From: an uncultured cyanobacterium
GTDB taxonomy: Bacteria; Cyanobacteriota; Cyanobacteriia; Cyanobacteriales; CAWCAG01
NCBI GenBank assembly: GCA_963793425.1
Contig: CAWCAG010000007.1
Span: 736,001 to 800,000, forward strand
Length of the DNA stretch: 64,000 bases
Reading direction: 5' to 3'
In this document: positions 24,947 through 27,059 of the stretch, piece after piece
How positions within the stretch are numbered: position 1 is the stretch's first letter
Layout of the letters: every line of letters begins with the position of its first letter
Notes under the pieces: generated by a model
The model's input: the letters and a program-made list of their open reading frames with translations, nothing else
What the model was told of the DNA's origin: nothing
Databases searched by the model: none
Translations under genes and position numbers: made by a program

Positions 24947-25208
24947 TTAATGTTTTTGAAAGATAATGAAGGGTCTAGTGGTCTGTCAATCTCGATAATA
25001 TGGGTTACTCGCTTTTTTATACCTTGTCCTAAAAGAGTTTTAGAGATTGTTAACGCACAAAAGCAAAAATGACAGACCACTAGAAGATAGGATAAAAGCA
25101 GGCTATAAAACGGAAAACCCTTGTTCCACACAAGTTATCGCTAATTTTGCCTATAATGAAGTTCCAAGTTAGGTTAAAATAGAATTAGGTTAAAGGATGC
25201 GATCGCTG

Positions 25209-26012
25209 ATGAAACTGCCTGACTATGAGCGAGTAATTTATAAGCGTAACCCATTGATAGAGGTTGTGTGTCAAGTTCGCTTTCCTACTATTTTGAAAAT
25301 TAGTAATCAAGATCCTGTTGAATTTCAAGATAGAGTACGTTTTGAATATCCTCTGTATGAAGTCCACAAATCTGTTAGTATTCCAGGAAATCAAAATGAG
25401 ATACTTCAGTTAGTTCAAAAAATAGGTTTACCTTTAAACTTTCAAGACACTACTTACAATTTCAGATCGGAAGATTCAAAGTGGCAAGTGTCATTAAATA
25501 AAGACTTTATTGCTCTAGCAACGACTAAATATGAAAGGTACGAAATATTCAAAGAAAAACTTCAAGAGGTAATAACAGTTTTTGATGACACATACAAGCC
25601 ATCTTTCTATTCAAGAGTTGATTTAAAGTACCAAGATTTAATTATTCGCTCTAACCTTAAACTCGACCAAAAGACAGACTGGAAATATTTAATTCCAGAG
25701 CATATTGCTCCTGAGTTTTATACACCAGAAATAGCGGACTCAGTAAAGGCATTTATGAAAAATGTGGAAATCGATGTTGAGTATGGTAGATTGCAATTTA
25801 AGCATGGCTTGGTGATGACACAAGATCCTGAAAAGGGAAAAAGCGAACCTGGATATTTGCTTGATGCTGATTTTTTTGTAGACCAAAAAACAAGGAGAGA
25901 AGATGTTTGGAATGTCCTCGATAAATTCAAGGAATCAGCAGGAAGATTGTTTAAATGGAGTATTACCGACAAACTCCATAATGCAATGGAACCCGAATCA
26001 ATCCACTCCTAA
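25209..26012 (+). CDS. TIGR04255 family protein
   Basis: N-terminal Y..NPLIEVVCQVRF, YERYE.F, R..L.Y.D, YLLD.D, F.WSITD motifs. Confidence 0.8.
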   Translation: MKLPDYERVIYKRNPLIEVVCQVRFPTILKISNQDPVEFQDRVRFEYPLYEVHKSVSIPGNQNEILQLVQKIGLPLNFQDTTYNFRSEDSKWQVSLNKDFIALATTKYERYEIFKEKLQEVITVFDDTYKPSFYSRVDLKYQDLIIRSNLKLDQKTDWKYLIPEHIAPEFYTPEIADSVKAFMKNVEIDVEYGRLQFKHGLVMTQDPEKGKSEPGYLLDADFFVDQKTRREDVWNVLDKFKESAGRLFKWSITDKLHNAMEPESIHS

Positions 26013-26355
26013 ACTAGACAGACTGAAACTAAGCCAAGGCGATATCTCTATTGTAGTCAGGCATTCATACAGTGAGCCTGAGCAACAAGCAATATCACCT
26101 ACGTTAGAAGTGAAGTTTTCCTACGAGAATTCAACAGAGTGTTTTGACTTTCTGAAATGTTTTCTTTTGCTTATTAAAATCACTCAACTTCCTTCGGAAG
26201 CAATTCAGGAATCTATAGAAACTTTAGAACAAATTGCAGATTTTTATAGCTATGATTCTTCTGAAGATTTATCATCAATAGTTACTTCAGAAATAGTATC
26301 AGGTGAAATTGTTACTACGGAAACTAAATCTCCCTTAGTTTTAAGTTGGGATTAA
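25981..26355 (+). CDS. small acidic hypothetical protein, overlapping the TIGR04255 gene
   Basis: ATG at 25981 overlaps the previous gene by 32 nt; ends 7 nt before the next gene. Confidence 0.65.
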   Translation: MQWNPNQSTPKLDRLKLSQGDISIVVRHSYSEPEQQAISPTLEVKFSYENSTECFDFLKCFLLLIKITQLPSEAIQESIETLEQIADFYSYDSSEDLSSIVTSEIVSGEIVTTETKSPLVLSWD

Positions 26356-26362
26356 TTTATTC

Positions 26363-26971
26363 ATGTCAGCAGATTTAATTTATAGGGTTTCTACTAAGGA
26401 ATCAGCACTAAGACAGGGAGAAATCTTAACAGGAGTAGTTCAATACAAACCTAAAATCGACCAGATAAATACTTCTGGATCAAGTAACATACCTTTTCAA
26501 AAGATAGTCCATCCTTATGCAATTATCGTCAGCCAAGACTGCGATTTAGATTGGGATTACGATGCTAGGCGCAATACCAAAGAAGATAAGTCTAAAGAAC
26601 ATAAACGACTTAACTCAATACTCCTATGTGAAGTTGATACAGCCAAAGCCATTAAAGACAACAAAAACAACAATATAAATAGTAAAGACTGGAACTATAT
26701 TAAGACAAATCGTCATCAGAGATATCATTTTTTTCAAGCAGTTACTTCAGAAATTGACTTAGACAAAAAAGGGTTACCAGAACTAACTTCGGATTCTAAG
26801 CAAGTCTTTGGAATAGACGCGGAGAACCTTTACTCTCAAATTAGAAACGGTCTGTCTAAACGACGGAGTATCCTTATAAGTCCTTATTTGGAACATTTCT
26901 CTGTCCGCTATCATTTCTTTCATCAAAGAGTAGCTTTGCCATCACCGATTACAAGTATTAAAGAAGGTTGA
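26363..26971 (+). CDS. hypothetical protein with LRQGEIL / IIVSQDCDL / SPYLEH motifs
   Basis: 202-aa ORF, third gene of a compact cassette. Confidence 0.75.
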   Translation: MSADLIYRVSTKESALRQGEILTGVVQYKPKIDQINTSGSSNIPFQKIVHPYAIIVSQDCDLDWDYDARRNTKEDKSKEHKRLNSILLCEVDTAKAIKDNKNNNINSKDWNYIKTNRHQRYHFFQAVTSEIDLDKKGLPELTSDSKQVFGIDAENLYSQIRNGLSKRRSILISPYLEHFSVRYHFFHQRVALPSPITSIKEG

Positions 26972-27059
26972 CATAGTTACCCGGAGTAATACTCCATTGT
27001 CAGAATAGTAAAGGGTCATTATTGTTGAATAAGTATCAAATTTCTATATTGTAAAAAAT

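Follow-up and report, generated by a model that had tools for sequence, protein, structure and literature searches.

A compact three-gene cassette occupies positions 25,209 to 26,971 of a 64,000-nucleotide stretch of DNA from an uncultured cyanobacterium (contig CAWCAG010000007.1), the whole of which we refer to as the window. Our results favor, at a probability of about 0.55, the hypothesis that this cassette is a mobile three-component module of the toxin-antitoxin (TA) type, in which gene 3 would be a new toxin of the MazF/CcdB fold, gene 2 its antitoxin and adaptor, and gene 1, a member of the TIGR04255 family, a controller that acts via gene 2. The original prediction, made from the letters of the DNA, had seen in these genes a toxin-antitoxin-chaperone-like or defence system. 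The three outcomes that it had named as fatal to itself (genes that do not co-occur in other genomes, a gene 3 that is non-toxic and has no nuclease or toxin fold, a cassette belonging to the vertically conserved core genome) did not materialize.

According to our hypothesis gene 3 would be the effector, and growth arrest its most likely consequence by analogy with its fold, either through RNA cutting (like MazF, Kid and ToxN) or through poisoning of an essential enzyme (like CcdB); its chemistry probably differs from that of MazF. Gene 2, translated just upstream, would be the cognate neutralizer, with a C-terminal tail that binds and blocks gene 3 and an N-terminal part that connects to gene 1. 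Gene 1 would then be the constant controller, acting as a stabilizer, sensor or regulator of gene 2, and in other genomes TIGR04255 would head equivalent cassettes with different downstream genes. Toxicity, binding partners, the role of gene 1 and the pay-off, be it addiction or phage defence, are the parts of this scheme that we infer.

The fold and conserved residues of gene 3

The structure of gene 3 was modelled from two alignments. An alignment of 32 close relatives (A1) gave a predicted local distance difference test (pLDDT) value of 39.9, and one of 139 sequences at 31-60% identity (A2) gave a pLDDT of 95.6 and a predicted template-modelling score of 0.89. The latter model consists of a strand-rich core with helices at residues 59-81, 94-114, 153-161 and 175-187. 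When it was compared with 48,161 representative chains by VIA-align, all 11 best matches were toxins of TA systems, and type III toxins came next (CptN 6.7, ToxN 4.3 and 3.6, AbiQ 4.2, with unrelated rows scoring up to 4.0). Every row listed by Foldseek against PDB was a MazF-type toxin (best E 2.6e-3, template-modelling score by target 0.49-0.63), and among the ten best rows against BFVD seven were named PemK/MazF, one was named 'Endoribonuclease' and two carried no such name. In the model, gene 3 has the SH3-like barrel and C-terminal helix of the CcdB/MazF structural superfamily and superposes on its solved members along the greater part of their chains. The MazF/PemK-like barrel that had been suggested from the spacing of strands is thereby upheld by a high-confidence model and three fold searches, and gene 3 is, as modelled, a new and enlarged family on the known MazF/Kid/CcdB toxin fold. 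Two other assignments were considered and set aside: a PD-(D/E)xK nuclease, based on D...D-x-K spacing, was dropped when the fold proved to be MazF/CcdB, and a papain-like Cys-His protease calls for a histidine that is nowhere at least 90% conserved in A2.

The family is large. Out of 480 candidates in a 90%-clustered database, 437 were relatives at E<=1e-3, and a profile search collected 1316 clusters at 50% identity (830 with E<=1e-10). Nearly all cluster members are stand-alone proteins of ~185-230 amino acids; in 12 longer relatives the extensions were low-complexity or spurious and contained no match to gene 2 or gene 1. No family for gene 3 was found in the Pfam, NCBIfam, PHROG and PADLOC libraries, its ESM Atlas matches were 'hypothetical' clusters only, and a PDB sequence search with its profile returned only noise (best E 0.078, NANOG). 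With 202 amino acids against ~110, gene 3 is ~90 residues larger than MazF and must therefore accommodate large insertions.

The sole invariant column in A2 is Cys60, which lies within the Q-D-C-D-L signature. Conservation of at least 90% was seen at Q18, E20, Q58, D61, L62, D65, R120, D132, G137, D144, F145, Y157, R167, R168, P174, R182, R189, L192 and P193. MazF-type RNases, for comparison, use a catalytic Arg and Thr/Ser. By eye, gene 3 is PemK-like in its N-terminal R-x-G-E-I strand and in a later hydrophobic strand that closes with Q/S-D. The strand ahead of Q-D-C-D-L opens with H-P in the window gene 3 and with R-P in PemK, at a position that is less than 90% conserved in A2. The motifs quoted earlier for genes 2 and 3 are present in both proteins. 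Three canonical PemK/MazF family matches occur elsewhere in the source genome, on contigs C7 and C5 and outside the window, and one of them (C7:14083-14340) is broken by two TAG stops.

Conservation and modular composition of the cassette

The proposed co-occurrence of the three genes was examined in a one-genome-per-species scan, which yielded 170 stretches with a gene-3 relative; the best 80 were kept and represent 79 distinct loci in Cyanobacteriota, Chloroflexota, Acidobacteriota, Planctomycetota, Pseudomonadota and Methylomirabilota. The triad recurred across these six phyla: tblastn with the window proteins placed a gene-1 homologue upstream of gene 3, on the same strand, in 73/79 loci. 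Gene 1 ends 299-480 nucleotides before gene 3 in 72 of these 73, and the exception, L079, has a spacing of 1609 nucleotides, gene 3 being split there by a transposase gene. In this Bryobacteraceae locus (L079:3744-5486) genes 1 and 2 are intact, and the interrupting transposase-like open reading frame (ORF) of 359 amino acids lies on the opposite strand. Half of the six loci without gene 1 end at contig edges (L045, L067, L078). The remaining three (L006, L012, L080) carry the gene-2/gene-3 pair alone, although plenty of sequence is available 5' of it. A co-oriented small gene adjoins the toxin-fold gene in all 74 loci that have both genes 1 and 3, where the middle ORFs align with one another, as well as in the three loci just mentioned; the window gene 2 itself finds a counterpart by tblastn in only 16/79 loci. 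The identities of genes 1 and 3 to the window proteins correlate (Spearman 0.75 over 69 loci, which are not independent samples), a co-variation that fits inheritance of the cassette as a single piece. In three Chloroflexota loci (L047:2380-3642, L065:2417-3655, L069:2298-3587) a calcineurin-like phosphoesterase (Metallophos) gene stands directly 5' of gene 1 on the same strand, and may represent either a fourth gene specific to this lineage or mere synteny.

Judged by identity to the window proteins, gene 2 is the fastest-evolving of the three, at 10-66% among the 71 members of its alignment (A4), the corresponding ranges being 26-79% (gene 1) and 31-60% (gene 3, A2). No family was matched by any of the 71 members, and the window gene 2 had no match in Pfam, NCBIfam, PADLOC or PHROG. 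Two parts of the protein are conserved: a helical segment with an L-L-K-C-L...L-P-E...A-L motif, and the C-terminal tail, in which G (53/71), R (60/71), P (62/71) and P (46/71) lead up to a hydrophobic triplet and then an acidic residue. This tail is kept in cassettes with a divergent gene 3 (L090, L093, L096) and replaced in L085 and L104, where the third gene differs. The upstream position, tight coupling, rapid divergence and a conserved tail that co-varies with gene 3 make gene 2 antitoxin-like, and these sequence features are consistent with a type II antitoxin. A complex prediction for genes 3 and 2, each entered as an alignment, scored 0.02 against a mark of 0.32 and weighs neither way.

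The assignment of gene 1 to TIGR04255 was confirmed at 160.3 bits (cut-off 30), with a match that covers positions 2-252 of 252 in the NCBIfam model, and a whole-genome search recovered the same gene. A SecB-like third component, as in toxin-antitoxin-chaperone (TAC) systems, was not recognized in gene 1 by sequence: neither SecB nor any other consistent Pfam family appeared at E<=0.1 for gene 1 and 40 relatives. Against PDB, the gene-1 profile found no convincing relative (a 60-residue match to the Sp100 bromodomain at E 0.003 was treated as chance), PHROG gave only a 17.5-bit match to an unannotated family, and the ESM Atlas matches were TIGR04255 clusters. Searches for longer fused forms found none, which is weak evidence, and comparison of the two halves by hhalign detected no internal duplication.

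TIGR04255 is not tied to gene 3. In a sample of 29 TIGR04255 loci from the phylum (L085-L113), a gene-3 relative lay downstream in 11: four of the window subfamily, six divergent and one a weak match. The divergent form comprises 174-179 amino acids with a T-Q-S-C-D-L motif, and in the three of these six loci that were inspected (L090, L093, L096) the middle gene encodes 97-106 amino acids and ends in a similar P-x-P/T-Y-x-x-D-E-E tail. The remaining 18/29 loci have no gene-3 relative and carry other tightly coupled partners instead. Among these arrangements are TIGR04255 followed only by a ~225-amino-acid protein with a weak HTH_3 match (L086, L087, L091, L094), TIGR04255 with proteins of ~178 and ~172 amino acids (L095, L097), and TIGR04255 with two further proteins, a middle one whose C-terminal domain is rich in tryptophan and a third of 135-152 amino acids (L085, L103, L104). 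No Pfam family beyond weak HTH/HEAT matches was found in these alternative partners.

The most instructive of these loci is L085, whose gene 1 belongs to the window subfamily (E 3e-97 to the gene-1 profile, A3). Over residues 1 to ~118 its middle protein is similar to the window gene 2 (32% identity, E 8e-12). The C-terminal domain of that protein and the third gene, on the other hand, are as in L104 (46% identity, E 3e-30), where gene 1 is of a different TIGR04255 subfamily. In this handful of loci the N-terminal part of the middle protein thus appears to go with the TIGR04255 subfamily and the C-terminal part with the third gene, and it is for this reason that we call gene 2 an adaptor. The N-terminal similarity may be inflated, since some of it falls where the middle gene shares its DNA with the reading frame of gene 1.

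Mobility, neighborhoods and local context

The cassette is accessory, not core, and its distribution is that of a sporadic, horizontally transferred element. Within the phylum TIGR04255 was found in 36/301 genomes (27/134 genera) and the gene-3 family in 18/301 (13/134 genera), 13 of these 18 also carrying TIGR04255. In a genome of the same genus (G301) the match to the upstream acyltransferase gene (LPAAT, 86% identity) stops at window position 24949 and that to murT (89% identity) begins at 26980, 9 nucleotides past the gene-3 stop; the two matches are on different G301 contigs, and other genes precede murT there. The gene-3 profile had no match in G301 or in a genome of the same family (G302). 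Absence from a same-genus genome and the low number of gene-3 carriers speak against a place in the vertically conserved core genome. In a maximum likelihood tree of 77 gene-3 proteins the cyanobacterial part cuts across families, and two copies from Methyloglobulus (Gammaproteobacteria) are nested in an otherwise cyanobacterial clade with support of 98/82. The tree also contains near-identical cassettes with identical locus coordinates from a Lyngbya isolate contig (L002) and a contig of a Limnospira metagenome-assembled genome (L003), at tree distances of 0 and 0.0045, which suggests either that transfer was very recent or that mislabelling or a binning artefact is involved.

Flanking ORFs, 131 in all, were examined in a sample of 26 loci, for which there is no background rate, so that the counts are descriptive. 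Transposition, integrase, restriction, PIN, Fic, STAND or similar genes were found no more than three ORFs away in 12 loci and housekeeping neighbors alone in 14, and the neighborhoods were not syntenic. The closest relative of the window cassette among the kept loci is L004 from Oscillatoria sp. PMC 1068.18 (73-79% identity, L004:263-3284). It lies ~115 nucleotides downstream of tnsB-tnsC-tniQ, which match PADLOC models of a type V-K CRISPR-associated transposon (CAST) at E 1e-233, 7e-98 and 7e-76, and is followed by a HerA-like ATPase. Since the triad comes directly after V-K-type transposition genes, it may be transposon cargo at this locus. On two viral contigs in IMG/VR, genes 1 and 3 directly follow endolysin and holin genes, and one of them (L081) also has the middle gene. 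In an uncultured cyanobacterium (L019:806-7743) the cassette lies amid dCMP deaminase, thymidylate-synthase-like, dUTPase, dCTP-deaminase-like and adenylate kinase genes.

In the window itself the cassette has only housekeeping neighbors, LPAAT and murT. Its features are collected in Table 1. The three genes on one strand, with a 32-nucleotide overlap when gene 2 starts at ATG 25981 and a 7-nucleotide gap between the gene-2 stop and gene 3, were confirmed from the ORFs and the sequence.

Table 1. Positions of the cassette and its features in the window; the three genes follow the ORF list and a reading of the sequence.
Feature	Position	Strand	Basis and remarks
Stretch without counterpart in the same-genus genome G301 (upstream intergenic region and entire cassette)	24950..26979		Genome comparison
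TATAAT hexamer, candidate -10 box	25152..25157	+	Sequence reading; 46-57 nucleotides 5' of two possible gene-1 starts
Gene 1, TIGR04255 family, 267 amino acids	25209..26012	+	NCBIfam match; alternative ATG at 25197, 25209 being the second ATG
Gene 2, small acidic protein, putative antitoxin/adaptor, 124 amino acids	25981..26355	+	ORF list and sequence; 150 amino acids from ATG 25903
Gene-2 C-terminal tail, last 20 residues	26293..26352	+	Best-conserved portion of the family by A4 column counts
Gene 3, putative toxin/effector of predicted MazF/Kid/CcdB fold, 202 amino acids	26363..26971	+	Structure model and fold searches
Gene-3 signature codons, Q58-D59-C60-D61-L62	26534..26548	+	Directly after strand 45-55 of the model; A2 conservation

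The start of gene 2 has two candidates. Its frame is open over 25903-26355, and an AAGGAG at 25892-25897, inside gene 1, precedes ATG 25903 by 5 nucleotides; a start there extends the protein to 150 amino acids and the overlap with gene 1 to 110 nucleotides. Reading of the sequence found no AAGGAG-like site ahead of ATG 25981. A gene-2 frame that stays open ~100 nucleotides into gene 1 is also seen at most related loci, but in some Nostocales loci (L008, L014, L026, L029) the frame begins only past gene 1.

The local features that had been named for the cassette need some qualification. A HIP1 site, GCGATCGC, does lie at 25199-25206, but HIP1 occurs 35 times in the window and its presence at the cassette start is therefore unremarkable. 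The TATAAT hexamer is also present, but without a paired -35 hexamer, for which reason it was missing from the list produced by a promoter scan. The cassette is AT-richer than its neighbors, as had been judged by eye (GC content 34.7%, against 38.8% for LPAAT, 38.2% for murT and 39.7% for the window as a whole; a value this low is reached by only 2.9% of segments of the same size), but its GC content at third codon positions equals theirs (0.26-0.29 versus 0.25-0.33), and the low GC thus stems from amino-acid make-up, not from foreign codon usage. No integrase or transposase ORF was seen between 22 and 30 kb of the window, the only part scanned for one, and the reported lack of an integrase holds for that part. 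An imperfect 12-nucleotide inverted repeat (24987-24998 / 25038-25049, 83% complementary, 39 nucleotides apart) lies 5' of gene 1, within the stretch missing from G301.

Alternative explanations and relation to known systems

Several of our results weigh against a module of the TA type. Sequence profiles do not place gene 3 in the PemK/MazF family: the window protein has no Pfam match to PemK (PF02452) at E<=0.1, 0 of the 139 relatives match it at E<=0.01, and when A2 was aligned by hhalign with 26 PemK proteins of related genomes, the probability was 0.3% and E 0.22. All Foldseek E-values of the gene-3 model, against PDB and BFVD alike, are above 1e-3, and the conserved set, with an invariant Cys60 and no conserved His, is unlike that of MazF. 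The MazF/CcdB fold also houses proteins of unrelated activities, and the fold alone therefore does not give the target of gene 3. Gene 1 is, as far as sequence comparison goes, without an informative domain, fusion or PDB relative. The small acidic character ascribed to gene 2 holds for the window protein (isoelectric point 4.28, net charge -12, next to 9.08 for the window gene 3) but not for the family, where the medians are 5.4 for gene 2 and 5.9 for gene 3, and the acidic/basic contrast is local to the window. Genes 1 and 2 are unmatched in PADLOC-DB 2.0.0, and gene 3 obtains there only a 12-bit, 30-residue match (E 0.021) to an unrelated '4TM effector' model, which does not make it a member of a defence model. 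Finally, genes of mobile genetic elements, TA systems or defence of any sort flank 12/26 sampled loci, and specific defence or CAST models (PADLOC, E<=1e-10) lie beside the cassette in 5/26 (L004, L013, L017, L048, L076), after generic kinase, TPR, IscS-like and sigma-54-activator matches had been discounted. Co-location with specific defence genes is limited to these five loci of the sample, and no PADLOC model recognizes the cassette itself.

These last counts bear most directly on a narrower form of our hypothesis, contained within it and put forward tentatively, namely that the cassette is an abortive-infection anti-phage system in which TIGR04255 would sense a phage cue and release the gene-3 effector via gene 2. 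The interchangeable genes downstream of TIGR04255 are typical of conflict systems, some copies stand on prophage-like contigs beside lysis genes, and others adjoin V-K CAST-type transposition genes, restriction enzymes, SoFic or PIN pairs. Precedents are the TAC systems, reported to defend against phages (10.1101/2024.02.24.581848, PMC11618068), and a split MazF-like domain that serves as effector in type II Gabija (PMC13069673). Against this stand the missing PADLOC matches for genes 1-3, and the housekeeping neighbors that alone surround the window cassette and 14 of the 26 sampled loci.

A second alternative, which we consider unlikely, is that gene 3 is not toxic at all, and instead is a cysteine-dependent enzyme or a nucleic-acid or protein binder that makes use of the MazF/CcdB barrel. 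In that case the triad would be regulatory or modifying, with gene 2 as substrate, carrier or regulator. The single invariant residue is Cys60 of Q-x-C-D-L, a motif that is not known as a family signature of MazF, Kid or CcdB, and the missing sequence homology to PemK and the large insertions in 202 rather than ~110 amino acids point the same way. A cysteine enzyme would however be left without a conserved His for a Cys-His dyad, the 11 top structural matches are all TA toxins with three type III toxins next, and the arrangement is TA-like, with its small fast-evolving upstream partner, tight coupling, sporadic transferred distribution and, in L079, a copy split by an insertion sequence. It is very unlikely that TIGR04255 is itself the effector or toxin, with downstream genes as its regulators and the MazF/CcdB-fold protein in the role of sensor or binding module: TIGR04255 stays constant as its partners vary, is as well conserved as gene 3 and in L086, L087, L091 and L094 precedes a weak HTH_3 protein as in toxin-first TA pairs, but it has no recognizable catalytic domain, and the gene-2/gene-3 pairs of L006, L012 and L080 do without it and therefore fit a self-contained toxin-antitoxin core.

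The preferred TA-type module may be one instance of something larger. As a speculative extension, TIGR04255 could mark a large and as yet unrecognized polymorphic class of three-gene conflict systems, in which a two-module adaptor would wire a constant controller or sensor to swappable effectors, one of them a new cysteine-dependent toxin on the MazF/CcdB barrel with an activity unlike both. In the full-text literature searched (~8.4 million texts), which leaves aside the supplementary tables where such accessions usually appear, 'TIGR04255' was not mentioned, and it may have been listed earlier in the supplement of some large-scale screen. The cassette would offer a first functional context for this widespread, 'sporadically distributed' family. 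It would also add to the MazF/CcdB fold a large family (the 1316 clusters above) that every sequence profile had missed and that, since its conserved core is different, may carry new toxin chemistry. Furthermore, the exchange of gene 2 and the downstream genes from cassette to cassette would constitute a natural experiment on the wiring of three-component toxin systems. Should phage defence prove true, the defence system would be a new and compact one, present in cyanobacteria as well as in several phyla of soil and freshwater.

Among known systems the closest by fold and layout are MazEF, PemIK, Kis-Kid and CcdAB, and the closest by three-part logic are the TAC systems. With the former the cassette shares a small fast-evolving gene immediately 5' of a toxin-fold gene and a sporadic, horizontally transferred distribution. 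It differs from them in that gene 3 has no sequence homology, is nearly double the size and has helical insertions and an invariant Cys, and in that a third conserved gene, TIGR04255, stands first; moreover, gene 2 has no recognizable DNA-binding domain of the MazE, PemI or CcdA type. The TAC systems, such as HigBA-SecB of M. tuberculosis and CmdTAC, likewise consist of three co-oriented genes, one of which encodes a small protein that resembles an antitoxin and falls into two functional parts; the third protein is proposed to recognize one of these. TAC systems are reported to be capable of phage defence (PMC5105189, PMC6377645, 10.1101/2024.02.24.581848, PMC11618068). In contrast to the TAC chaperone, gene 1 is not SecB-like by sequence and is first rather than last in the operon, and the toxin family is different; the TAC chaperone-addiction element is a C-terminal extension, whereas in gene 2 the C-terminal tail goes with the putative toxin and it is the N-terminal part that goes with gene 1.

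Other systems share single features. GajC of type II Gabija (Liu-DS1) is described as having a split MazF-like effector domain with a helical insertion (PMC13069673), a likeness to gene 3 by description; GajC works with the GajB helicase, and the cassette contains no helicase. The type III toxins ToxN, AbiQ and CptN are structurally less similar to gene 3, and their antitoxins are RNA repeats, whereas a conserved protein-coding ORF fills the corresponding gap in the cassette. PanA of the Panacea systems is itself the antitoxin in two-gene pairs, whereas TIGR04255 is joined by a small middle protein encoded on its own, and some loci have the gene-2/gene-3 pair but no TIGR04255. In both cases, however, a single conserved domain is combined with many different partners: unrelated toxins for PanA, and varied downstream genes for TIGR04255.

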